A program made the position numbers and the translations under genes. Shown in pieces: positions 31,883 to 44,144 of a DNA stretch of 64,000 nucleotides (positions are counted from its first letter, which is position 1; each line of letters starts with the position of its first letter). The stretch is from positions 301,431-365,430 of the forward strand of contig JAJFGB010000001.1 in assembly GCA_021776335.1 (NCBI GenBank), in the 5' to 3' direction. This stretch comes from Hyphococcus sp. Lineage in GTDB: Bacteria > Pseudomonadota > Alphaproteobacteria > Caulobacterales > Parvularculaceae. The notes under the pieces are model-generated. The model saw only the letters and a program-made list of their open reading frames with translations, was not told where the DNA came from and searched no databases.

Positions 31883-32039
31883 ACGCATTATGCAATGGGC
31901 GCCATTGCAATCTGCAACTAAATCCGAGTTGCTTAATAAAGTTTTTACACCATATGCGCTAACTGTTGACGCTAACATATTGAATTATAACAAATTTTCA
32001 ATTTGCAACGCAGGCGGCGTTTAATGGCGCGCAAAATGA
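31883..32039 (+). promoter_or_regulatory. Sigma54-type promoter P1: LuxO-type enhancer pair, IHF-like site, -24/-12
   Basis: ACGCA-TTA-TGCAA 31883-31895; TTGCA-ATC-TGCAA 31905-31917; IHF-like ATTCAATATGTTA (minus strand, 31973-31985); TGGCGCG-CAAA-ATGA 32025-32039. Confidence 0.65.
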
Positions 32040-32071
32040 AACGGTCCTTAGCCAGTGGGTTGAGGAACGTT

Positions 32072-34909
32072 ATGCAACAGACGGTCAAAAGCGACGGCGA
32101 TCAGCAAAGGTCCTCAAGCGCCCAGATGTTGCGCGCAGGCCTGGGCGAGGCGCAGGAAGATCTTGGTCATCTTGCCCGTGTTGCGGCACAAGCACTGTCG
32201 GCGCCAAGCACATTCATAGCGTTGCTCGAAGACGATATTTTGCATTATGGCGCGCAGCACGGTGACGACGATCAAGACAACGATCGTGACAAGAAAATCT
32301 GCCAACGTATCCTTGGCGAGAATGATTTGTTTATCGTTTCAGACGCAACAACAAATACAGAGTTCTCATCCATTCTGGGACTTTCGAAACCGAACACCCG
32401 GTTCATTGCCGGCGCACCCATCGTCGGTGAAGACGGCTGCCGCGTTGGCGCAGTATGCGTTCTCGACACTGTGGTAAGGCCTGATCTAACCCCACAAAAG
32501 CTCAACGTTCTGTATTCCGTCGCCAAGCTTGCAGGGGAAGCGATGAGCAAGCGAAGCCTTAAGCAAAAAGGTGAGACAGCTTTTGCAATTCTGCAAAAAG
32601 CGCAAAAGCTAAGTCGAATTGCCCATTTCGTTTTTGACCCTGTTGGGTTCAAAACCATCAGTATTTCAAAGTCGCTTGGCATTTTTTATGATGGCGACGG
32701 TGAAACCGAGCGCGGCCTTGATTTTGGTGAATTTGTTGATCGCTTGCATCCAGACGATTCTGATCTTGTGCAGCACGCAATCGGAGAGGGCGTTAAGGGC
32801 GGGGCCGCAATCAATATCAAATTTCGTGTTGAATCGCACAAGGGCGCCTATCGAAATATCTGGTTGAATGCTGAGCCGCTTCAACTCGACAATTCGGCAG
32901 CTGCGCCATGGATCGGCATCATGCAGGACGTCACCGATCAGGTTCGAAAAGAACAAGACCTTAAGGAAAATATTGCATTTCGGCGCGCGGCGACCGACAC
33001 GGCGTTGGATTGCGTTATCACAATTGATGCAAGTGGAAAAATCAAGGCGTTCAACCCGGCCGCGGAGCAAATCTTTGGGTATGCAAGGCAAGATGTTGTC
33101 GGCGCTCCCCTGGCAGAAATAATAATCCCTGAAGAACTGCGCGGCGCCCATCTCGCCGGTATCAAGCGGTACCTTGAAACCGGAGAGCATAATGTGCTCG
33201 GCAAGCGCATTGAAGTTGAGGCTATTACAAAGTCCGGCGCCCGTTTGCCAATTGAATTGGCGATCACACCATTCGAGGTGAATGGCGAGAAACATTTTAC
33301 AGCATATCTGAGGGACATATCTGAACGTAAAGCTGCAGCAGTTGAGATCGAGGAATCGGCTGCTTGCCTCAAAACGGCGAAGGAAGAAGCTGAAGCAGCC
33401 AACGCCGCGAAGTCTGATTTCCTCGCGACGATCAGCCACGAAATACGCACGCCGTTAAACGGCATCATAGGCGGCCTCAGTCTCATTAAGGACGAGCTTG
33501 ATCGAACCGATCACCGAAGTCATGCCGAAGTTGCATATAACTCGGCGGAGACGTTACTGGTGTTGATCAATGACATACTAGATTTGTCAAAAATTGAAGC
33601 CGGAAAGCTGGAAATTGAAAACACGAATTTTGATCTTTATGAATGCATCAGAAGTGCGGCTGATCTTTTTAAAGCGAATGCGGATGAAAAAGGGCTTGAG
33701 TTTGCTGTTGAGATTCCGAACGATCTAACCCGATGGCGCGTTGGCGATTCGGGACGGATTCGCCAGGTACTTTTGAATTTTATCTCCAACGCTATCAAGT
33801 TTACCGATGCTGGAGGTGTTGTTCTGTCCGTATCAGAAATCAACAATGAACAAGTCGTGTTGAGCGTTGCCGATACAGGGATCGGCATCCAATCAAAATA
33901 TCAAGACAAGTTATTTACCAGCTTCCAACAGGTCGATGCATCATACAAGCGCCGGTTTTCCGGCAGCGGCCTTGGCCTCGCAATTTCCAGGCAACTTGCG
34001 GAGTTGATGGGCGGTGACATTCGTTTTTCAAGCGTAGAAAGCAAAGGGAGTACCTTTTCCATGACCCTTCCCCTTAAAATAGGCGCCGCTCAGGAAACAC
34101 CATACGCGCAGGAAATAGAGCCCGACCGGTTGAGGGGCAATATTCTCATCGCCGAAGACAGCGCAACCAACGCGCTGGTGGCGCGGGCGCTCCTTCGCTT
34201 GAAAGGCGCAAAAGTCGATCACGTTTCCAACGGCGCTGAAGCTGTGGCGGCCTGCCGCGTGCGGCCTTACGATTTGATTCTCATGGATCTGGCAATGCCG
34301 GAGATGGATGGCTTTGAAGCCACGCGGGAAATTCGCAGCTCCAACACCGCGAACAAGGAGACGCCAATTGTGGCGCTTACGGCCAATGTTTCGGAGGACG
34401 ATCGCAAGGAATGCATGAATGTCGGGATGAATGATCTCGTCGCGAAACCAATTAATCGACGGCAGTTTCTGAATACGGTCGCCGACTGGCTTGGGAATGA
34501 CGAAATCTGTGGGTCAGAAGAGGAGGCGGATTTCGATTCAATTACTGTCTTCGATCCAAACCGATTTGAGACTGAATGGCGTGACCTTCCGCTTTCGGCG
34601 CAGTTTGAAATCATCACGGTCTTTATGGACGAAACGAAAGCCCGACAGATGAAGATTGCGCGCGCGATGCTTAAACAGGACTGGCGCATAGCTGAAAATG
34701 AGGCGCACGCGCTCAAGAGTTCGGCCGGCAATATTGGCGCTGAACGCCTGCATCTGCTGGCCAAACGGATTGAAGCGCATTTGAAAGCAAGTGAACGAGA
34801 CGCTGCCGCGGCGCTCATTCTGCGCGTACCTGGCGTCTGTTCGGATACGATTGACAGTATCGAAAAGCAGCACGCCAGAATTGGCGAGAAGGCAAAGTCA
34901 AATGGGTAA
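32072..34909 (+). CDS. Cytoplasmic hybrid histidine kinase GAF-PAS-PAS-HisKA-HATPase-REC-Hpt
   Basis: GAF (RFIAGAPIV..GAVCVLD), PAS (RLHPDD), FixL-like PAS (FNPAAEQIFGY..AHLAGIKRYLETGE), FLATISHEIRTPLNG, DLILMDLAMPEMDG, Hpt AHALKSSAGNIGA; no TM; GAGGAA RBS before ATG 32072. Confidence 0.93.
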   Translation: MQQTVKSDGDQQRSSSAQMLRAGLGEAQEDLGHLARVAAQALSAPSTFIALLEDDILHYGAQHGDDDQDNDRDKKICQRILGENDLFIVSDATTNTEFSSILGLSKPNTRFIAGAPIVGEDGCRVGAVCVLDTVVRPDLTPQKLNVLYSVAKLAGEAMSKRSLKQKGETAFAILQKAQKLSRIAHFVFDPVGFKTISISKSLGIFYDGDGETERGLDFGEFVDRLHPDDSDLVQHAIGEGVKGGAAINIKFRVESHKGAYRNIWLNAEPLQLDNSAAAPWIGIMQDVTDQVRKEQDLKENIAFRRAATDTALDCVITIDASGKIKAFNPAAEQIFGYARQDVVGAPLAEIIIPEELRGAHLAGIKRYLETGEHNVLGKRIEVEAITKSGARLPIELAITPFEVNGEKHFTAYLRDISERKAAAVEIEESAACLKTAKEEAEAANAAKSDFLATISHEIRTPLNGIIGGLSLIKDELDRTDHRSHAEVAYNSAETLLVLINDILDLSKIEAGKLEIENTNFDLYECIRSAADLFKANADEKGLEFAVEIPNDLTRWRVGDSGRIRQVLLNFISNAIKFTDAGGVVLSVSEINNEQVVLSVADTGIGIQSKYQDKLFTSFQQVDASYKRRFSGSGLGLAISRQLAELMGGDIRFSSVESKGSTFSMTLPLKIGAAQETPYAQEIEPDRLRGNILIAEDSATNALVARALLRLKGAKVDHVSNGAEAVAACRVRPYDLILMDLAMPEMDGFEATREIRSSNTANKETPIVALTANVSEDDRKECMNVGMNDLVAKPINRRQFLNTVADWLGNDEICGSEEEADFDSITVFDPNRFETEWRDLPLSAQFEIITVFMDETKARQMKIARAMLKQDWRIAENEAHALKSSAGNIGAERLHLLAKRIEAHLKASERDAAAALILRVPGVCSDTIDSIEKQHARIGEKAKSNG

Positions 34910-36317
34910 ACCGAAGGCAAAAGTCCTCGTTGTTGAAGACAGCCCGTCACTCGCTCGTACATATACGGCCCAGCTTGAACACAGCGGATATGAAACAAGC
35001 ATCGCTGATACGGGCGCCAAGGCGCGCGCGATTGTCCAGGAGTTTGACTGTGTTCTGCTCGACCTTGGGCTTCCTGACGAAGACGGACTTGACATTTTAA
35101 CGGATTGGAACGCGGCGGAGCGGCCCGTGATCGTGATTACCGGGAATGGATCGATCAACACTGCCGTTGATGCAATGCAGTGCGGCGCCGTCGACTTTCT
35201 CGTCAAGCCTTTCCAGAGTGAACGGCTGATCACAACCGTTGCCAACGCAATTGAGAAAAGTCGCTTAAGCCAAATAGTGAATACATATGAAAGCAAGATC
35301 GACCGAAAATCATTTGGCGGTTTCGTCGGCGACACACTTGAAATGCAGGCGGTTTATCAAACATTGGAAAGCGCTGCGAGCAGCAAAGCGACCGCTTTCA
35401 TCATTGGTGAGAGCGGCGTTGGTAAGGAACTTGCGGCGCGCGCGGTACATGATTACAGCCCCCGTGCGGGTAAGCCATTTGTGGCGCTCAATTGCGGCGC
35501 GATTCCGCGAGATCTGCTTGAGAGCGAGTTATTCGGACATATCAAGGGCGCATTTACAGGCGCTACGTCGGATCGGGAGGGGGCGGCGGCGCGCGCGAAT
35601 GGCGGCACATTGTTTCTGGATGAAATCACCGAGATGGATATCTCGCTGCAACCAAAGCTTCTGCGTTTTCTGCAGCTTGGCAGTTTTCAAAAAGTCGGTG
35701 GCGACAAAACGATCGAAACTGACATTCGAATTGTGGCGGCGACAAATAGAACGCCCCTTGAATGTGTGCGTTTGGGTTTATTGCGAGAGGATCTCTATTA
35801 TCGGTTGAATGTGTTGCCGATTGAGTTGCCGCCTCTCCGGGACCACGCTGGAGATATCGCAAAGATCGCGTCTGAATTCCTGGTCGAATATGCCAATGAA
35901 GAGGGGAAGAATTTCTCGGAGTTCACAAACACGGCAATCGAAGCGCTTCAACAACATGACTGGCCAGGCAATGTTCGGGAACTACAAAATGTCATCAGAC
36001 AAATCGTTGTCCTGAATGATGGCCCTGTCGTGCAGCCGTCCATGGTGATATCGTTGTTAATGGACAAGGTATCGACGGCAGGACGCCTGTTACCAGCAGC
36101 AACGGATATTGAGCCCATAAGCAGCGCATCGGCTGGGTTTTCAAATCGCGAGTTTGAACTGAAACCACTTTGGCAGATCGAGCTTGACGCGATTGACGAC
36201 GCGATAGCGCGTTGTGACGGAAATATTCAAAAAGCCTCCCGATTGTTGGACATCAGTCCATCGACAATCTACCGCAAACGCGAGCGCGCCAGAGGGCGAT
36301 CTTCTGACGTTGCGTGA
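34902..36317 (+). CDS. LuxO-like sigma54-dependent response regulator (REC-AAA+-Fis HTH)
   Basis: LLDLGLPD receiver, ESAASSKA, GESGVGKE, ESELFGHIKGAFTGA, WPGNVRELQN, PLWQIE..AI..CDGNI..LDISPSTIYRK; overlaps the kinase stop codon. Confidence 0.93.
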   Translation: MGKPKAKVLVVEDSPSLARTYTAQLEHSGYETSIADTGAKARAIVQEFDCVLLDLGLPDEDGLDILTDWNAAERPVIVITGNGSINTAVDAMQCGAVDFLVKPFQSERLITTVANAIEKSRLSQIVNTYESKIDRKSFGGFVGDTLEMQAVYQTLESAASSKATAFIIGESGVGKELAARAVHDYSPRAGKPFVALNCGAIPRDLLESELFGHIKGAFTGATSDREGAAARANGGTLFLDEITEMDISLQPKLLRFLQLGSFQKVGGDKTIETDIRIVAATNRTPLECVRLGLLREDLYYRLNVLPIELPPLRDHAGDIAKIASEFLVEYANEEGKNFSEFTNTAIEALQQHDWPGNVRELQNVIRQIVVLNDGPVVQPSMVISLLMDKVSTAGRLLPAATDIEPISSASAGFSNREFELKPLWQIELDAIDDAIARCDGNIQKASRLLDISPSTIYRKRERARGRSSDVA

Positions 36318-36350
36318 CATAAGCTAACACTCTCTGACAACACTCGAATC

Positions 36351-36383
36351 GCGCGCCTCCTGGTGAGGCTGCGCGCTTTTTTT
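36351..36383 (+). terminator. Rho-independent terminator after the activator gene
   Basis: GCGCGCCTC-CTGGT-GAGGC(T)GCGC stem followed by T7. Confidence 0.75.
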
Positions 36384-36412
36384 GGCAGTGCTAACGACAT
36401 TTGCACCGTGTA

Positions 36413-36545
36413 CTGCAAATTGCATCGGTTGCGTTGCATATTGCTTCGCCTGCCATGGCTGCAACGGCTGTTATGCAATCGCTGCAACCATAACCGATTG
36501 ATCTAATTGTATATATTTCCGTTCGCGTAATGGCTCGGTCTTTGA
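36413..36545 (+). promoter_or_regulatory. Sigma54-type promoter P2 upstream of sqdB
   Basis: CTGCA-AAT-TGCAT 36413-36425; TTGCA-TAT-TGCTT 36434-36446; IHF-like GATCAATCGGTTA (minus strand, 36491-36503); TGGCTCG-GTCT-TTGA 36531-36545. Confidence 0.7.
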
Positions 36546-36611
36546 GTGTCTTTGCGCATTGGAAGCGCCGCCATCGGATGCTGCGCACAGTTTGGAACAG
36601 GAGTATCATTC

Positions 36612-37823
36612 GTGGAAAAGAAAATTGTTATCCTCGGCGGAGATGGATTTTGCGGCTGGCCTACAGCGCTCCATCTTTCAGCTAAAGACTATAACGTCAC
36701 CATTGTTGACAATCTTTCGAGGCGCTTGATTGACGTTGAGCTCGGCGCTTCAAGCTTGACGCCGATCAAGTCGACCGAACGGCGGCTCGAGGCCTGGACG
36801 CGCATTACCGGCCGGCAGATTAACTTCGAGAAAATCGACGCTGCAAAAGACTATGAAGCGCTGAAGTCGCTGCTCAATCGTGTACGTCCCGATACAGTCA
36901 TTCATTTCGCAGAGCAGCGCGCAGCGCCCTATTCGATGAAAAGCGCCACCCACAAGACCTACACTGTAGATAATAATATCGGTGCGACACACAACTTGCT
37001 GTCAATTCTCTCTGAACTCGAACTGGATACTCATGTCGTTCATCTGGGGACCATGGGTGTTTATGGTTATGATGATGCTGGTCTCGAGATTCCGGAAGGG
37101 TATTTACCAGTTCAGATAAAAACTGAAACCGGCGAATTTATTTCCCGAGAAGTGCTTTACCCGACAGATCCCGGCAGCGTCTATCATATGACGAAGTCCA
37201 TGGATCAGCTTCTTTTTCAGTTTTACGCCAAGAATGACGGCATTCGCGTCACAGATCTTCACCAGGGCATCGTTTGGGGGACGCAGACCGAAGAAACACG
37301 GCTGTCGGAATCACTGATTAATCGATTTGACTATGACGGCGATTACGGCACGGTCCTGAACCGTTTTTTGATGCAAGCTGCAGTCGGTCATCCGCTTACC
37401 GTACACGGCACCGGAGGCCAAACACGTGCCTTCATCCATATACAAGACACCGTTCGGTGTATTGCGCTTGCGGTGGAAAACCCGCCGGCGCGCGGCGCGC
37501 GCGTAAAAATTCTCAATCAAATAACCGAATGCCATCGCGTTCGCGATCTGGCGAGCATTGTTTCGAAGGTGACAGGTGCGAAGGTCGCGTTTGTCGATAA
37601 TCCACGTAAAGAAGCCGATGAGAATGATCTGCGCGTTTCAAATGCCACCTTCATCGACCTCGGACTGAAACCAACCACCCTTGAAAATGGATTGCTTGCG
37701 GAAACCATGGATATCGCCGTGAAGTACGCGCTGCGCCACGATCCCGCAATGATCCCTTGCGTTTCCACCTGGACCTCAACGCAGCGCCCTGGCGAAGTTA
37801 AAGAACGCCAAGCGATCGCTTAA
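36612..37823 (+). CDS. sqdB: UDP-sulfoquinovose synthase
   Basis: GGDGFCGWPTALHLS, HFAEQRAAPYSMKS, LGTMGVYG, YHMTKSMD, RFDYDGDYGTVLNRF, HGTGGQTRAFIHI, all diagnostic of alphaproteobacterial SqdB; AGGAG RBS before GTG 36612. Confidence 0.95.
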   Translation: MEKKIVILGGDGFCGWPTALHLSAKDYNVTIVDNLSRRLIDVELGASSLTPIKSTERRLEAWTRITGRQINFEKIDAAKDYEALKSLLNRVRPDTVIHFAEQRAAPYSMKSATHKTYTVDNNIGATHNLLSILSELELDTHVVHLGTMGVYGYDDAGLEIPEGYLPVQIKTETGEFISREVLYPTDPGSVYHMTKSMDQLLFQFYAKNDGIRVTDLHQGIVWGTQTEETRLSESLINRFDYDGDYGTVLNRFLMQAAVGHPLTVHGTGGQTRAFIHIQDTVRCIALAVENPPARGARVKILNQITECHRVRDLASIVSKVTGAKVAFVDNPRKEADENDLRVSNATFIDLGLKPTTLENGLLAETMDIAVKYALRHDPAMIPCVSTWTSTQRPGEVKERQAIA

Positions 37824-37844
37824 GGAAAACGGAGGTTTATCACC

Positions 37845-39569
37845 ATGCGTCTCATGATCATTGGCATAACCGCACTTGGATTAGCGGCTCTTGCCATGAT
37901 CATTGCGGATGGCCGGCTGTTTAACTCGCTCGGCTTCGCCTCCCTTTGGGGGGGCGATGTCCGGCAAGTGCGGTTTGCTAATGATGCATGGGCGCCGAGG
38001 CAAAAGCGCGACACAATTGTGATCCCGGTGGCGCATGGACAATGGAAGACGATGTCGGGTTTTCCGTCCTATGCGTCCTTTGTGTTCCCGCTGACACAAC
38101 ACACGCAGATTGAGGCGGGCGCCTTTGTTCTGGAATTTTCATTGCAGCTACCCTCGTCGGGTGGCGGCGCGATGCGGGTGATGATCAACAATGAAAAACG
38201 GGCGGAGCTGCTATTTGAACGGGATCGGACGCGTTACCGAATAACTGTTGAACTGACGGATGCGGATTTAAAAAAAGGGGAGCTGTTTGTAGCGCTGTCG
38301 GCGGACGGATATGGGGCCGGTGGGGAATGTCCCGATGATCGTTCGCGGATCGCGATCATCGAAATCAAGCCGAACACCAGGGTCGAGTTGCGTCTGGCGG
38401 CGCCAATCAGTCACCCGGCAGATGCGGCAATACTGGCTGGCGATCCGATCCGTTTGTTGATGTCGGACGATAATATGCAGCTGCATCGCGAACGAACACT
38501 CGCCCTCGCGCTGAGGCTTGAACAAAAAGGCAGACGGGTTGAATTCGTGGCAAAGGACGCAGTTCGCAACCGGATTTCTATTCGCATCGACCCGAAAACC
38601 AACAAACCACGATTTGACCGTCGCATGAATGAAGTCGTCATGTCTGGACCTCGCGATGCCGCTTTGCTGCGCCCAGCCAATGTCAGCTCGAGCGCCGGCC
38701 CAAATTTCGGCAAGGACGATATTTTGTATGTTGAAGCGCTTGGTGCGGCTGTTCATACGCGCCAGTTTCGCCGCGAAATAAAATGGCGGATCGACTTTGA
38801 CCTAAAGGACATGCCTGACGGTGCGGCGCCGACACAGCTAAACCTGAAGCTTTTTCGTTCAGCCCTGGGCGAAGATCATGCAGGCCTTTTGTCGATCAGC
38901 TTTAATGGCGGTTTGCTTCATAGTGCGAGCAACATCGGGATTTCTAATCCGCTCAGTAAAAAAATCACTCTTCCGCAGAGTGAAATGCGGCTTGAAAATG
39001 CGCTTGAGATTTCAATCCTCACCAACGAAGACCGCATAGGTATTTGCAACCCAGGTCGCGACGCTTTTGCTCAATTATTAAAACCGACAGCGCTTACGCG
39101 ATTTCGGCCCCCTCAGGATATGCGTGCGGAGTCATTGCCTCATCGACTTAGACGGATCGGGCATGTGCAGATCTCAGCGCCTTTCGGGATGCAGAGCTCA
39201 GCCTATCGGGAGAGCATATCGCTTCTGGCGCGCATCACGCCGCCCACAATTAAACTGACAAGCAGCGAAAGACTGGTGCAAGGGCCGACAGTCCGAGCGA
39301 CGATTATTCCACTGCAAGAATTTCGCACTGAGATCGGCAAGTATCTACCACCGCCCGCCGCAATAAGAGCGGCAGGCGGTGATTACAGGCCTGATCAGGC
39401 GCCAATCATATGGGTTGGTGTGGATGCGAGCGCATTGGGATTTGCGGATCCGGCGCAGCAATATGCGCGATTAACGCGGGCATCTGCGAACAAGATTTTG
39501 AATTCAGATCGCAACGGCGTTGCAATCATCTTTGAGCTTCCGGCTATTGACGAGATAGGCGCGTCATGA
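37845..39569 (+). CDS. BcsB-like periplasmic polysaccharide co-polymerase subunit
   Basis: N-terminal hydrophobic anchor; two repeats resembling BcsB carbohydrate-binding modules (F.FPL..F.LEFS..MRVMINN..C.DD..IEIKPNTRVEL and IDFDL..LNLKL..LSISFNGGLL..LP..EN.LEI..C..AQLL). Confidence 0.6.
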   Translation: MRLMIIGITALGLAALAMIIADGRLFNSLGFASLWGGDVRQVRFANDAWAPRQKRDTIVIPVAHGQWKTMSGFPSYASFVFPLTQHTQIEAGAFVLEFSLQLPSSGGGAMRVMINNEKRAELLFERDRTRYRITVELTDADLKKGELFVALSADGYGAGGECPDDRSRIAIIEIKPNTRVELRLAAPISHPADAAILAGDPIRLLMSDDNMQLHRERTLALALRLEQKGRRVEFVAKDAVRNRISIRIDPKTNKPRFDRRMNEVVMSGPRDAALLRPANVSSSAGPNFGKDDILYVEALGAAVHTRQFRREIKWRIDFDLKDMPDGAAPTQLNLKLFRSALGEDHAGLLSISFNGGLLHSASNIGISNPLSKKITLPQSEMRLENALEISILTNEDRIGICNPGRDAFAQLLKPTALTRFRPPQDMRAESLPHRLRRIGHVQISAPFGMQSSAYRESISLLARITPPTIKLTSSERLVQGPTVRATIIPLQEFRTEIGKYLPPPAAIRAAGGDYRPDQAPIIWVGVDASALGFADPAQQYARLTRASANKILNSDRNGVAIIFELPAIDEIGAS

Positions 39570-42325
39570 CCGATGCCGTTGCAACGGAAACAAGGTCTCA
39601 AAATGAATTTCTTTGCGTTGACAGCGCACCGAAACAATATGCCTCTTTAATCCCGATATGGCGTGCGCCGGCGGCGTGTGCGCTATTTCTGGTTATTGGT
39701 TTCGCAGCGATATTTATCGTCAACCAGATCCCATTCCTGAATGCCGCTTTCCCTGATGATGATTTTATCTTCTCGCCATATACAGGCAGCCATTCCATAC
39801 CCATCCGGCTGTTTATTGTCACCTTCAGTGCATCGTTTTGCTGCTTCTGCAATGGCGACCTCAAAAACAAAACCCTGCTGTTTGCCGATATCGTGTTCAC
39901 CTATGCGCTCTACTGCGCGGTGTTCGACCTCATCAACATTATTGTTTATGAGACGTTGCAGGTTCGATATCAGCTAAGCTTCATTGAGATCGTTAGCGGA
40001 TTACTCGGTTTTTGGGTTTTCTCATTGAAACTCCTCCGGCGCGGGCGCATGCCGCCAAAGATTGAAGTCCCTTACAAGCCACAGCGAACATTTTCAACGA
40101 TCGTTCGGCTCGTGGGCGGCGCTGTCGCGGCCGGATTATTTTCGTTTTGGATCGCATCGCTTGATTTGGCGATTGTTCAGGACCTTCGAAATTTTGCACT
40201 GCTGGGCGGGATTGGTCCTGGCGTATTTCTCTTTTTGCCAGTGTTGTTTCTAATCTGGTTTGTTTTAGCGACCTATGACCGGCTGACCATGAAAGTGGGC
40301 GACTTTACGCCTCCGCTGACATTTGTTGTTCCTGCCCACAACGAAGAATACATCATCGCTGATACAATCTTCGCGATGGATGAGGCTGCCTGTAATTACA
40401 ACGGCAATGTGATCATTCTCATCATGAATAACAATTCCGACGACCGAACAAGTGAGGTCGCCGAGGCTGCGCTGGCAAAATGCAAGGCGGCGACAGGAAA
40501 AGTGATCGACGTCCCGAAGCCAGGAAAATCGAATGCGCTAAACGCAGGTCTTGCTGCAGCCGAAACCGAATTTTTCGTGCGCGTTGACGCCGATACATTG
40601 ATTGCGCCGGATTCAATCCACCGCGCCATGCGATATTTCTATGACCCTAAAGTCGGCGTGGTCGGCGGATTGCCTATACCGCCAGGCGGGGCGCTTTTCG
40701 ACAATGCGCGATTCCTCGAGGTGATTGTAAAACACGGTTATTACTCGGTTGCGCTCGGTGCGATCAATGGCGTTGTTGGCGTGCCGGGCATGTTAGCGCT
40801 CTATCGCACCGAGCTCCCAAGGCAGCTTGGTGGATTTGTTGAAGGCATGAACGGTGAGGACACCGACATGTCGTTGCGCATCGGCGAGATGGGATATGAG
40901 GTCGTCGTTGATCCAAAGGTGACCTACATCTCCGAAGTGCCTGCGAGTTACAAGCATATGCGTGAACAACGCATGCGCTGGTTCCGCTCAATCTATCATA
41001 TCTCAAGCAGGAATGGGGATTATCTCGACCGGTCATGGCTGACGATCAGGGGAAAGATTATTTTACCCTATATGCTCGTCAATTCAGCTCGCCGCGCCAT
41101 GCTCACCCCGCTCGTTATGTTTGGCGCCATCGAATATGTGACCAGTTTTAATTCAGCGAACACACTGGAGTGGCAAGCGATCTTAGCGGTGCTCATCGGG
41201 GCGCCAGCAATTGTTGCGGTTTTTGCTTCGCTGATAAACGGCTATCCGAAAGGCATTCTGGCGCTTCCAGATTATTTGGTGTTTCGCGCGATCCGCGCTT
41301 ACCTGACGTTAGAATCGCTTCTCAGCATTATCATTGCGCCGGACCCGGAAACCGTTGCGCGCGCGCAAGTAGTGCGACGTAAAAGGAAGGTATGGATTGC
41401 TCGCGCCCGGGCGGGGTTCGCCGGCGCTGTGCTTTCTGTTGCCGCTATCTTTAACGCGAACGCGAACGATCCAGGCCTTTTAGTTGAGGCGACAATGGGC
41501 GCTCAACGGCAGGGCCTGATCGTCGAGGAAGATGACGTCAAGGCGAGCGGCCTTGCCGTTGGCGTCTTTGCTGACGCATCACTGATTTATGACCAAAGGC
41601 TCAGAAAAAAGGACTTCGTGAAGGTTAAAAGTAACCTGAGGAAGGATATTTATCCGGATCGCTCTGGGTTAGACACGATACACTATCGTGGTGAGCTGCA
41701 ATATCGGCGACAATTGAGTAAAAAATGCAGTTGCTGGTTACAAGCGACAATGCGCTACGACCAAAAAAAACGCGATGGTGAGTTTCTCTTTCGACGGGAG
41801 GCGGCGCAAGTTAAGCTGTGGCGCCGGCACAACAAACAACATAACGGGTTCATACAGCTGGGTGCGAGCAACCTTGACTACAACGACGCACGCCTCGCAG
41901 GGTTTGATCAGCGAAGATACAGAATAGATGTTGGCCATCAATGGCGGCCGGCAGACTCACGGCTTCGATTGAATGGGGTGATCTTTGCGGAACACTCCGA
42001 TGCTGACGCGGCTCGGTTTGATTTTCAATCTCTTGGCGCACAGTTACGCGCAGAGAGGCAATTTGCTAGCTCAGCGACGAAAATGCATGTTGCGCTGTTT
42101 TGGCGTGAACGTCGCTATGAAGGTGTATTCAGTCGAGATTTTCCAATGTCGCGGAGCGATAGGGCGCTAAGAGCGTCGGTCGGCCTTTCACATCCAGTCA
42201 GGAAAAGACTTACCGTGACGGGGGCATTGGGCTGGGAACAAAATCGCTCCAATATTCCCATTCGGCGGCATCAGGGCTTAACGTTTCGGATCACGCTTAG
42301 CGCCAAATTGCCGATCCTGGATTGA
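39566..42325 (+). CDS. Processive GT2 polysaccharide synthase fused to an outer-membrane beta-barrel
   Basis: About six N-terminal TMs; VPAHNEE, KSNALNAG, DADT, GEDTD and QRMRW (D,D,D,QxxRW); further TMs; internal signal-peptide-like segment; C-terminal region of about 290 aa with amphipathic beta-strand pattern. ATGA overlap with the upstream gene. Confidence 0.85.
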   Translation: MTDAVATETRSQNEFLCVDSAPKQYASLIPIWRAPAACALFLVIGFAAIFIVNQIPFLNAAFPDDDFIFSPYTGSHSIPIRLFIVTFSASFCCFCNGDLKNKTLLFADIVFTYALYCAVFDLINIIVYETLQVRYQLSFIEIVSGLLGFWVFSLKLLRRGRMPPKIEVPYKPQRTFSTIVRLVGGAVAAGLFSFWIASLDLAIVQDLRNFALLGGIGPGVFLFLPVLFLIWFVLATYDRLTMKVGDFTPPLTFVVPAHNEEYIIADTIFAMDEAACNYNGNVIILIMNNNSDDRTSEVAEAALAKCKAATGKVIDVPKPGKSNALNAGLAAAETEFFVRVDADTLIAPDSIHRAMRYFYDPKVGVVGGLPIPPGGALFDNARFLEVIVKHGYYSVALGAINGVVGVPGMLALYRTELPRQLGGFVEGMNGEDTDMSLRIGEMGYEVVVDPKVTYISEVPASYKHMREQRMRWFRSIYHISSRNGDYLDRSWLTIRGKIILPYMLVNSARRAMLTPLVMFGAIEYVTSFNSANTLEWQAILAVLIGAPAIVAVFASLINGYPKGILALPDYLVFRAIRAYLTLESLLSIIIAPDPETVARAQVVRRKRKVWIARARAGFAGAVLSVAAIFNANANDPGLLVEATMGAQRQGLIVEEDDVKASGLAVGVFADASLIYDQRLRKKDFVKVKSNLRKDIYPDRSGLDTIHYRGELQYRRQLSKKCSCWLQATMRYDQKKRDGEFLFRREAAQVKLWRRHNKQHNGFIQLGASNLDYNDARLAGFDQRRYRIDVGHQWRPADSRLRLNGVIFAEHSDADAARFDFQSLGAQLRAERQFASSATKMHVALFWRERRYEGVFSRDFPMSRSDRALRASVGLSHPVRKRLTVTGALGWEQNRSNIPIRRHQGLTFRITLSAKLPILD

Positions 42326-42336
42326 TTAACGCAATG

Positions 42337-42486
42337 CCTCAAATTGCGCGCATTCTCTCACATTGCTCTTGCATATTGCGGCAGTTAGCCGGCCATCAAA
42401 ACTCGTGAACCGAACACTGCGCCAATATATTGTTTTTGCTTACTCTTTTGCGACCGCGGGGCTGCGCAGGATGGCCTGGCTTTTGA
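42337..42486 (+). promoter_or_regulatory. Sigma54-type promoter P3 upstream of GT2-cysH
   Basis: CCTCA-AAT-TGCGC 42337-42349; TTGCA-TAT-TGCGG 42369-42381 (11-mer TTGCATATTGC identical to P2); IHF-like AAACAATATATTG (minus strand, 42423-42435); TGGCCTG-GCTT-TTGA 42472-42486. Confidence 0.65.
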
Positions 42487-42514
42487 AGCTCTTGAGGGGA
42501 GAGAAAGGTCGAAC

Positions 42515-43447
42515 ATGCCAGATAAAATGCAAAAACGAAAAGGCGGCCGTTTTGGTTTCCGCAATATACGACCGCGGGCGCGATCATGCTCAGCATACGA
42601 CGTCAGTGTGATCATTCCTTATCATAACGCATCGCGGACAATCCGCCGCGCGGTCGCCTCCATTGTTTTTCAACGTCACGTCAGATGCGAGATTGTTATT
42701 ATCAATGACGGCTCGTCTCTTGAAGAGACCGCGAAGCTGTCGTCGCTTCGTGGAAAGCGGAATATTCGCGTTGTTGATGTGCTTCATCGCGGCGCTGCCG
42801 CTGCACGCAATTTGGGCGCAGAGCTCACCCGGTCCGCCGTCATCGCTTTCCTTGATGCGGATGATGAGATTCCCGCACGCGCGTTTACCAGAAAGATCAA
42901 GAAATTAAACAGCAATCCGGATATCGGCCTCGTTTTTGGACGAACGCGCATTTGCGTTAATACACAAAAACCGACTGATGAAATTACGCCATTTCAGTCT
43001 TCGCTTACACTTGAGGAAGTGCTCGGTTCATTTCCCGTGCTGACAGCGTCAAATATGCTTGTTCGCCGAGCGGCGTTTGAGGATATCGGAGGCTTCGACG
43101 AAGGATTACGTGACGCCAGCGATCAAGAGTGGACTGCTCGGCTTTGCTCGCATGAAAAATGGGACGCTGCCGGCGTTAAAAGCGTGACGGTCCGGAAATT
43201 TGTCGGCCGTTCGTCGCTCTGGGCGAATCCTGATGCGATGGAACAGGCGTGGCGCCAGGTTCTCGCTTCACATATGGCAAAGGGAAACCAACTGGAGGAC
43301 GGGGAAGCGGCGCGAATTTCGGACCTGTTTTATCAGCGCCTCGCCAGTTACGCCGGGCGCTATGTCAATGTCCATAACAAATCGCGCTTCTTTGAACTGA
43401 TCCAAATCTGGAGGGGGCAGCGTGATGCAATTGCATACAGCTCATAG
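42515..43447 (+). CDS. Soluble GT2 glycosyltransferase
   Basis: VSVIIPYHNA, IVIINDGSS, GAAAARNLG, IAFLDADD, GGFDEGL..SD. Confidence 0.9.
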   Translation: MPDKMQKRKGGRFGFRNIRPRARSCSAYDVSVIIPYHNASRTIRRAVASIVFQRHVRCEIVIINDGSSLEETAKLSSLRGKRNIRVVDVLHRGAAAARNLGAELTRSAVIAFLDADDEIPARAFTRKIKKLNSNPDIGLVFGRTRICVNTQKPTDEITPFQSSLTLEEVLGSFPVLTASNMLVRRAAFEDIGGFDEGLRDASDQEWTARLCSHEKWDAAGVKSVTVRKFVGRSSLWANPDAMEQAWRQVLASHMAKGNQLEDGEAARISDLFYQRLASYAGRYVNVHNKSRFFELIQIWRGQRDAIAYSS

Positions 43448-44144
43448 TCCGTCGGGTTTTCATGCGGCGCAACCGATTGTTGATTTGCTGAATGTTGAGC
43501 ACGAAAATGTGCGCGCAGAATGCATTCTCCGAAATGCCCTTGATCTTTTCAGCGGCGAAATCGTTCTGGTGTCATCTTTCGGGGCCGATGCGGCTGTGCT
43601 CCTTCATATGCTCGCAGAATTTGACAAGGATATACCAGTCATTTTCCTGGATACCGGACGTCACTTTGAAAAAACACTTCACTACCGCCAGACCCTGGCG
43701 CACCAGCTCGGCCTTCGCAATGTTCGATCGTCTCTCCCGAATCGACTTGCACTGGCCGAGCTGGACCCGGACGGCAGCCTGCATCAGCTGGACCCAGACG
43801 CGTGTTGCGCCATTCGAAAAAAGGCCGTCTTGAAAAGCGCATTATCGCCATTCAGCGCATGGATATCGGGCCGAAAACGTTACCAGACGGCGGCCCGGCA
43901 AAATATCCGCATATTCGAGTGCGACAATGAAATGCGTATCAAACTAAGCCCTCTTGCTGATTGGTCAGAGCAAGATATTGAGCACTACTATGAAGCGCAC
44001 AAATTGCCGCGACATCCGCTATGGGCGGAAGGCTATCGGTCGATCGGATGCGCGCCATGCACGTCGCCAACCATTCAGGGAGAAGATGCACGCGATGGCC
44101 GCTGGAGCGCCCGCGGCAAAACTGAATGCGGAATTCATTTGTGA
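43425..44144 (+). CDS. cysH: APS/PAPS reductase, Fe-S (APS-reductase) type
   Basis: SSFGADAAVLLHM, FLDTGRHF, CCAIRK, SIGCAPCT, RDGRW, KTECGIH; overlaps the GT2 stop. Confidence 0.93.
   Translation: MQLHTAHSPSGFHAAQPIVDLLNVEHENVRAECILRNALDLFSGEIVLVSSFGADAAVLLHMLAEFDKDIPVIFLDTGRHFEKTLHYRQTLAHQLGLRNVRSSLPNRLALAELDPDGSLHQLDPDACCAIRKKAVLKSALSPFSAWISGRKRYQTAARQNIRIFECDNEMRIKLSPLADWSEQDIEHYYEAHKLPRHPLWAEGYRSIGCAPCTSPTIQGEDARDGRWSARGKTECGIHL

Follow-up and report, generated by a model that had tools for sequence, protein, structure and literature searches.

LuxO-type boxes and candidate sigma-54 promoters in a conserved kinase-activator-glycan gene cassette of Hyphococcus sp.

How the genes of a glycan locus in Hyphococcus sp. 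are switched on is the question raised by a 64,000-nucleotide stretch of its genome (GenBank assembly GCA_021776335.1, contig JAJFGB010000001.1, positions 301,431 to 365,430), referred to here as the window. Seven co-oriented genes lie at this locus and encode a hybrid sensor kinase, an activator, a sqdB-like protein, a protein of 574 amino acids (aa), a 919-aa GT2 synthase-like protein, a 310-aa GT2 protein and a cysH-type protein. An earlier note, made from the letters of the sequence alone, had placed promoters before the kinase gene (P1), sqdB (P2) and the GT2-cysH pair (P3), each with paired LuxO-type boxes, a site for integration host factor (IHF) and a -24/-12 core. Having compared these elements with orthologous loci and with the genome background, we consider it quite probable that the locus is a self-contained cassette run by enhancer-dependent sigma-54 promoters. 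The regulatory architecture looks real and well supported, and looks like a fairly ordinary variant of LuxO/SypG-type control.

The main support for this comes from conservation. With the DNA-binding end of the activator as query, eight orthologous contigs were found in marine and biofilm metagenomes; their activators, where complete, match it at 73–82% identity along the full protein. The seven genes keep their order along all that each contig covers; for the sqdB-like, 574-aa and GT2 synthase-like genes this was seen in L094 and L096–L099. Intergenic regions were anchored on the T of TGGC and compared ungapped, which left nearly no conserved columns outside islands formed by the boxes, the IHF-like site and the core, and these elements recur at fixed offsets in five to eight orthologous loci. 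Judged from the alignments, the islands are a classical phylogenetic footprint. The check that had been suggested, a look for the motifs in orthologous loci, thus turned out positively, with upstream activating sequence (UAS), IHF-like site and core at fixed positions at three promoters.

At P2, a proximal box with zero to two mismatches is found at -94 to -98 in all seven loci, the distal box at -118/-119 in four of the seven (others: L094, L099, L101), and an IHF-like site with at most one mismatch at -39/-40 on the same strand in all seven, three of them perfect. TGGC-N7-TTGA is invariant across the seven. The extra half-sites at P2 have counterparts (TGCAAT) at similar positions in L098, L099 and L101. 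At P1, all six orthologues have a distal box at -140 to -144 (as do L158 and L159) and a proximal box at -118 to -122, the latter perfect in four. The P1 IHF-like site is kept at -52/-53 in three of six loci, perfect in L094 and L097, and no match stands at this position in L096, L098 and L099. At P3, the core TGGC-N7-TTGAA is invariant in five of five loci and a box stands at -102 to -105 in four of the five (with L094, L097 and L098, where it is perfect), L099 having boxes at -114 and -133 instead. The P3 IHF-like position is kept in two of five loci, L098 being the only orthologue to match, and perfectly; this is weak support.

Footprinting within the genus was impossible because the only activator homologue there, found in one of 36 other same-genus genomes, is 53% identical and not accompanied by the sqdB glycan genes; the other 35 lack the cassette. 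Together with the unrelated neighbourhoods of the cassette on the metagenome contigs, this is consistent with transfer of the cassette as a unit with its own regulators.

The genome background, for which the 4.18-Mb source assembly was used, shows what a single box is worth. Boxes with two mismatches number 1868 in the genome and 39 in the window, so the individual boxes of P2 and P3 mean little, and cluster density and orthologue position were therefore used as evidence. When half-sites (TGCAA/TTGCA) were counted per 120 bp, the P2 interval from 36388 was the densest cluster genome-wide (seven, rank 1) and P1 was joint second (six). Perfect TTGCA-N3-TGCAA boxes occur three times in the genome, and one of them is the P1 proximal box, in which all ten specified bases match and the spacer is ATC rather than W3; the other boxes are LuxO-type 13-bp inverted repeats with one or two mismatches. 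The pairing of boxes that had been described held for P1 (22 bp) and P2 (21 bp) and failed for P3, where the supposed partner at 42337 has five mismatches and is not credible in the source genome. Between enhancer and core, the IHF consensus WATCAANNNNTTR was sought, and the one-mismatch minus-strand sites reported earlier at 31973, 36491 and 42423 were all recovered. In intergenic DNA such sites, with at most one mismatch, have a density of 0.12 per 100 bp, and it is unlikely to be chance that each 70–90 bp gap holds one, always on the same strand. Both ihfA and ihfB are present in the source genome and score above their cut-offs, with P1 and P3 giving weaker support for IHF than P2. A genome-wide regulon scan for TGGC-N7-WTG(A/C) cores with LuxO-type boxes 70–170 bp upstream recovered P1 and P2, and elsewhere in the genome only poor matches inside open reading frames (ORFs). 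P3 fails this filter because its boxes are degenerate in the source genome.

The adjoining regulator fits such promoters. Its best NCBIfam model is LuxO (NF041946) at 523 bits, against 367 for NtrC, and its best PDB match is LuxO 5ep0, ~100 bits above NtrC1; GAFTGA and the Walker motifs are intact (Pfam Sigma54_activat, 8.8e-64). The C-terminal part of its HTH_8 domain reads LLDISPSTIYRKRE, and the helix ISPSTIYRK is invariant across 13 aligned relatives, two of them annotated as LuxO by JGI. With 523 bits it stays below the curated LuxO cut-off of 800, and it is LuxO-like, not Vibrio LuxO itself. The source genome has one rpoN, and with it and a GAFTGA activator holds the machinery for sigma-54 promoters. 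The earlier proposal of a LuxO-type regulon stands in part: a LuxO-family activator adjoins and orthologues keep the elements, but single two-mismatch boxes are insignificant alone.

The boxes match the LuxO sites ttgcaaaatgcaa and ttgcaatttgcaa of V. cholerae (PMC10328515) and the V. fischeri LuxO motif TTGCAWWWTGCAA (PMC10162802), and TTGCA-W3-TGCAA is, as had been noted, the published LuxO site (PMC10328515; PMC10162802). Offsets here are also similar to those of LuxO sites, 89–131 bp upstream of qrr starts (PMC11443567; PMC10162802). In both systems a response-regulator-type sigma-54 activator, here the one with LuxO as its best NCBIfam and PDB match, goes with a 13-bp site in one to three copies ~90–130 bp upstream of the start, here a predicted one (PMC10328515; PMC11443567; PMC10162802). 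The differences from LuxO/qrr, beyond the score, are that the kinase itself carries the Hpt domain and there is no separate LuxU, the sensor looks cytoplasmic (GAF-PAS-PAS) rather than like an autoinducer receptor, and the targets are protein-coding glycan genes whose cores have GA at -12. Neither Qrr nor any other Rfam family was matched within the window, and a look downstream of the boxes, both there and at six related loci, gave no known RNA, Qrr included. In the literature searched, all characterised LuxO proteins or LuxO homologues are from Vibrionaceae.

SypG is a LuxO paralogue, ~47% identical to LuxO in Aliivibrio salmonicida and fed by hybrid kinases; within one polysaccharide locus it is the direct activator of several sigma-54 promoters that have an enhancer each, and its site overlaps LuxO sites (PMC10162802, citing Ray et al. 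2013). By analogy of regulatory logic, SypG/syp of Vibrio fischeri is the closest functional analogue. However, the published SypG motif is TTCTCANNNTGMDWN, and the LuxO palindrome is the better fit for the sites here; the polysaccharide genes here are sqdB, the GT2 synthase gene and cysH, and the nearest relatives of the activator are mostly from Alphaproteobacteria. The predicted layout is also that of NtrC at glnAp2 and of NifA and IHF at nifH, with tandem activator sites on one helical face >100 bp upstream and an IHF bend between sites and core. From these systems the present one differs in DNA-binding specificity, signal and the dinucleotide at -12.

Several observations weigh against the cassette being run in this way. 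The base at -12 is A, not C, at all three cores and in every orthologue, so that the GC of the consensus is missing. On a crude sigma-54 consensus the cores score 14.9–15.2 out of 19.4, a level that ~10,000 sites in the genome reach or exceed; this scoring was dropped because the three cores did not stand out from background. In a search of sequencing runs for the window sequence, only the DNA metagenome of the source biofilm matched and no RNA run did. The P1 core overlaps an in-frame ATG, with purines resembling a Shine-Dalgarno (SD) sequence upstream in several orthologues, and the 16 codons that follow from this ATG stay open with some synonymous-looking changes. P3 in the source genome amounts to one two-mismatch box and a poor IHF match. 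Lastly, the other two perfect boxes of the genome sit in the intergenic region that separates the gene for an HxlR-family regulator from one for a cupin. They were considered as a fourth target and rejected on account of the short gap between the genes and the lack of a TGGC core; they are probably an unrelated operator, and they show that TTGCA-N3-TGCAA is probably a palindrome that other proteins than those of LuxO type use as well.

With respect to the core, what had been called -24/-12 elements proved partly so. All three are TGGC-N8-TGA, and counted from where the proximal box starts, the GG comes after 121, 98 and 104 bp, as claimed (98–121 bp). TGGC spacing is exact and invariant, and in TGGC-N7-TTGA (P2, P3) and TGGC-N7-ATGA (P1) the GG lies exactly 10 nt before -13/-12. 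The -13 G is present at all three; the C at -12 is not, and the P1 core may be a start codon. GA at -12 cannot be put down to the sigma-54 of the organism as such: canonical cores such as CTGGCACGTCGATTGCG, which precede flagellar rod, FliK-like and FlgK-like genes in the source genome, keep GC. Class III/IV flagellar promoters of Caulobacter likewise carry canonical sigma-54 cores. TGGC-N7-TTGA is not enriched in intergenic DNA genome-wide. In a 2025 study of P. putida sigma-54 in vitro on random templates, TTGAAT was recovered beside TTGCAT as a -12 motif, and TTGCAT was dominant only among the strongest templates (PMC11997794). Given this TTGAAT motif and the TTGA(A) cores of distant loci described below, the sigma-54 reading is reasonable despite the A at -12. 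On their sequence, the cores would work like sigma-54 promoters without being canonical members, and are probably weak promoters that depend strongly on activator and IHF owing to that base.

At P1 the core TGGCGCGC lies within a 19-mer, ATGGCGCGCAAAATGAAAC, that is invariant in five orthologues and differs by one or two bases in L099 and L159. When the metagenome contigs were scanned with the 19-mer, all 38 matches were due to chance and no further orthologue was found. A third, promoter-proximal box, absent from the earlier note, stands at -28/-29 in all six orthologues and is perfect in L099 and L159. Its TTGCA was tried as the -12 of another sigma-54 core and rejected, with no GG 10 nt upstream. 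By analogy, this box may be a promoter-proximal 'governor' or an autorepression site: at glnAp2, promoter-proximal low-affinity NtrC sites restrict output, and LuxO represses its own gene.

For P1 alone, it is possible, though on balance doubtful, that the 19-mer is instead the translation start of the kinase (Met-Ala-Arg-Lys-Met-Lys), in which case the operon promoter would lie further upstream and the P1 boxes, chiefly that at -29, would autorepress. The ATG (codons ATG-GCG-CGC) is in frame in a frame that stays open over 48 or 51 nt in all eight orthologues, an SD-like AGGGAG or GGGGAG lies 4–9 nt upstream of it in L094 and L097, synonymous-looking changes are seen (GCC/GCA/GCG, GTT/GTC/GTA, TTG/CTG, AGG/CGG), and gene callers chose this upstream ATG in four orthologous contigs. 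However, the first six codons are without synonymous change in five orthologues, which coding constraint alone does not explain, and variable sites counted by hand fall 6/5/6 over the codon positions, that is, without coding periodicity. A strong SD (GAGGA, at 32062 in the source genome) and ATG are kept 48 nt downstream; in L099 this ATG has shifted by a single codon, as a true start would be expected to do, and the source genome's own kinase record, of 945 aa, fits the start at 32072. The spacing from UAS and IHF-like site to TGGC also resembles that of P2 and P3, and no alternative promoter candidate was seen between the IHF-like site and the ATG. Weighing these features of the sequence, we think it fairly probable that the P1 core is a promoter rather than a start codon. 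Kinase start calls as such differ between gene callers (945 aa vs 950–962 aa).

It is somewhat less likely still that P3 is decayed or minor in the source genome, with a degenerate box that no longer recruits the activator and GT2-cysH transcribed mainly by read-through from P2. In favor of this, P3 keeps only one exact half-site, within its two-mismatch box, the distal box claimed for it has five mismatches, it fails the genome-wide filter for UAS plus core, and no terminator was seen 3′ of the 919-aa GT2 gene. On the other hand, its core is invariant, the P3s of orthologues have good boxes at the same offset, that of L098 being perfect, and an exact 11-mer, TTGCATATTGC, links the P3 box to the P2 proximal box. 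This 11-mer, which occurs eight times in the genome, and the octamer CAAATTGC are common to P2 and P3, as had been noted. In L099 (13293-14219) the 310-aa GT2 gene is absent and a P3-type promoter lies directly 5′ of cysH, a layout which suggests that driving the sulfite-supplying reductase is the chief role of P3.

That the boxes are operators of another regulator, with sigma-70 promoters for the genes and a coincidental TGGC...TTGA, is very improbable in spite of the non-canonical -12 elements, the unremarkable core scores and the same palindrome at the HxlR-cupin site, as neither TGGC nor TTGA changes in any orthologue at the three sites, with exact -24/-12 spacing throughout, while the spacers vary, a sigma-70 scan of the three regions gave one weak match only (9/12, opposite strand, in P1), and each lineage examined has an intact gene for a sigma-54 activator along with the boxes.

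Under sigma-54 control of the cassette, the cytoplasmic hybrid kinase (GAF-PAS-PAS-HK-REC-Hpt) would phosphorylate the LuxO-family enhancer-binding protein, which would bind tandem TTGCA-N3-TGCAA boxes two helical turns apart, their centres ~115–160 bp upstream of predicted starts near 32051, 36557 and 42498. IHF would bend the DNA ~60–70 bp upstream of the start, and the activator hexamer would remodel the sigma-54 holoenzyme at TGGC-N7-(T/A)TGA cores. P2 would drive an operon of sqdB, the gene for the 574-aa protein and the GT2 synthase gene, and P3 the GT2-cysH unit. P1 probably drives the kinase-activator operon, which would be positive autoregulation, and the extra box just upstream of its core may limit or repress it. 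Activator binding, DNA bending, dependence on sigma-54, the start sites and the sign of the autoregulation are thus predictions, made from the sequence elements as seen, their rarity and positional conservation, and the presence of rpoN, ihfA, ihfB and a GAFTGA activator. All features are listed in Table 1.

Table 1. Features of the cassette and related sites. Positions are those of the window unless a contig or locus is named; offsets are counted from the TGGC of the core.
Feature	Position	Strand	Sequence	Remarks
P1 distal LuxO-type box	31883..31895	.	ACGCATTATGCAA	2 mismatches; -142 from TGGC
P1 proximal box	31905..31917	.	TTGCAATCTGCAA	perfect; -120 from TGGC; 22 bp from distal box
P1 IHF-like site	31973..31985	-	ATTCAATATGTTA	1 mismatch; -52 from TGGC
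P1 third, promoter-proximal box	31996..32008	.	TTTCAATTTGCAA	1 mismatch; -29 from TGGC; 17 bp upstream of TGGC
P1 candidate -24/-12 core	32025..32040	+	TGGCGCGCAAAATGAA	TGGC-N7-ATGA; overlaps in-frame ATG 32024
Hybrid sensor kinase gene	32072..34909	+		GAF-PAS-PAS-HisKA-HATPase-REC-Hpt (Pfam); ORF from 32003; start ATG 32072 or ATG 32024
LuxO-like sigma-54 activator gene	34902..36317	+	LLDISPSTIYRK (helix)	REC-AAA+-HTH_8; GAFTGA; overlaps kinase gene
Candidate intrinsic terminator	36351..36383	+		GC stem then T7, 3′ of activator gene; fold -19 kcal/mol
P2 distal box	36413..36425	.	CTGCAAATTGCAT	2 mismatches, outer positions; -118 from TGGC
P2 proximal box	36434..36446	.	TTGCATATTGCTT	2 mismatches; -97 from TGGC; 21 bp from distal box
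Extra TGCAA half-sites	36460..36488	.		possible third or fourth activator site
P2 IHF-like site	36491..36503	-	GATCAATCGGTTA	1 mismatch; -40 from TGGC
P2 -24/-12-type core	36531..36546	+	TGGCTCGGTCTTTGAG	GA at -12
sqdB-like gene	36612-37823	+		UDP-sulfoquinovose-synthase-type; GTG start; Pfam/NCBIfam
Gene for 574-aa protein	37845-39569	+		without family match (Pfam/NCBIfam)
GT2 synthase-like gene, 919 aa	39566-42325	+		Pfam/NCBIfam
P3 box	42369..42381	.	TTGCATATTGCGG	2 mismatches; -103 from TGGC
P3 IHF-like site	42423..42435	-	AAACAATATATTG	1 mismatch; -49 from TGGC
P3 -24/-12-type core	42472..42487	+	TGGCCTGGCTTTTGAA	GA at -12
GT2 gene, 310 aa	42515-43447	+		Pfam/NCBIfam
cysH-type gene	43422-44144	+		phosphoadenosine phosphosulfate/adenosine phosphosulfate (PAPS/APS) reductase; Pfam/NCBIfam
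Two perfect boxes	G000 contig C8, 356719 and 356757 (356719-356769)	.		outside the window; 38 bp apart, larger inverted repeat; HxlR-family regulator gene divergent
Canonical sigma-54 cores	G000 contig C10, 181885, 347836, 348009		TGGCAC/TGGCCC-N5-TTGC	5′ of flagellar rod, FliK-like and FlgK-like genes
TTGA(A) cores, distant loci	L032, L034 at 11572; L028 ~11650; L031 at 11551
TTGA(A) cores, distant loci	L013 at 5407; L010 at 398	-

The terminator stands between the activator gene and P2. Its z-score is only -1.55, and a comparable hairpin with a T-run was read from the sequence 3′ of the activator gene in L094, L097 and L100. Cassette neighbourhoods differ among the metagenome contigs, where alginate-lyase/2-keto-3-deoxygluconate-utilisation, MACPF or gyrB genes are found.

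Beyond the orthologues, the nearest named homologues of the activator are 37–54% identical and come from Maricaulis, Kiloniella, Nisaea, Algimonas, Pseudovibrio, Oceanisphaera, Colwellia, Pseudoalteromonas and Oleiphilus. Perfect boxes number 26 per Mb in the closest LuxO-like loci vs 2.3 in loci of other activators (~11-fold) and 0.7 in the source genome. Perfect boxes, in clusters such as TTGCAATTTGCAA, lie ~60–120 bp upstream of canonical TGGCAC-N5-TTGC cores in distant loci, and these box-plus-core promoters precede polysaccharide genes in Pseudovibrio and Maricaulis and the sensor's own operon in Maricaulis, Pseudomaricurvus and Oleiphilus. TTGA(A) cores 80–120 bp downstream of LuxO-type boxes were found in Maricaulis, a same-genus genome, three Colwellia species and Pseudoalteromonas luteoviolacea. 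About half of these matches could be chance; the tally hints that TTGA(A) cores are a recurrent promoter subclass in LuxO-like regulons. More broadly, and tentatively, since we would sooner doubt than assert it, LuxO-family activators outside Vibrionaceae could be a widespread uncharacterised class that acts through TTGCA-N3-TGCAA enhancers to switch on, directly, both polysaccharide loci and the operons of their own kinases, with a recurrent subset of target promoters, a tuned, low-basal subclass, that has a conserved TTGA(A) at -12, and with the Qrr wiring of Vibrio as the derived state.

If the cassette works as proposed, a complete regulon will have been read from DNA alone, from the sensor kinase and its LuxO-like activator through three promoters with enhancer, IHF site and sigma-54 core to a glycan locus of sulfoquinovose type, and the DNA specificity of LuxO will have been kept well beyond vibrios. 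As the architecture is that of textbooks, the gain would be in scope and detail and not in principle. The points of greatest experimental worth are the ambiguity of P1 and the A at -12, whose conservation makes these promoters a ready-made case for asking how the -12 element governs sigma-54 output, both basal and activated.

Two further loci may be mentioned. In G042, a genome of the same order, box clusters lie 5′ of a kinase gene and of a sugar-transferase gene, and no canonical core was found at these clusters. In L037 (8264-9967), from a metagenome-assembled genome of Oleiphilus, genes for H-NOX, a histidine kinase and a LuxO-like activator form one operon with two perfect LuxO boxes and a canonical TGGCACGTGACATGCA core upstream, and this looks like an autoregulated nitric oxide-sensing relay.

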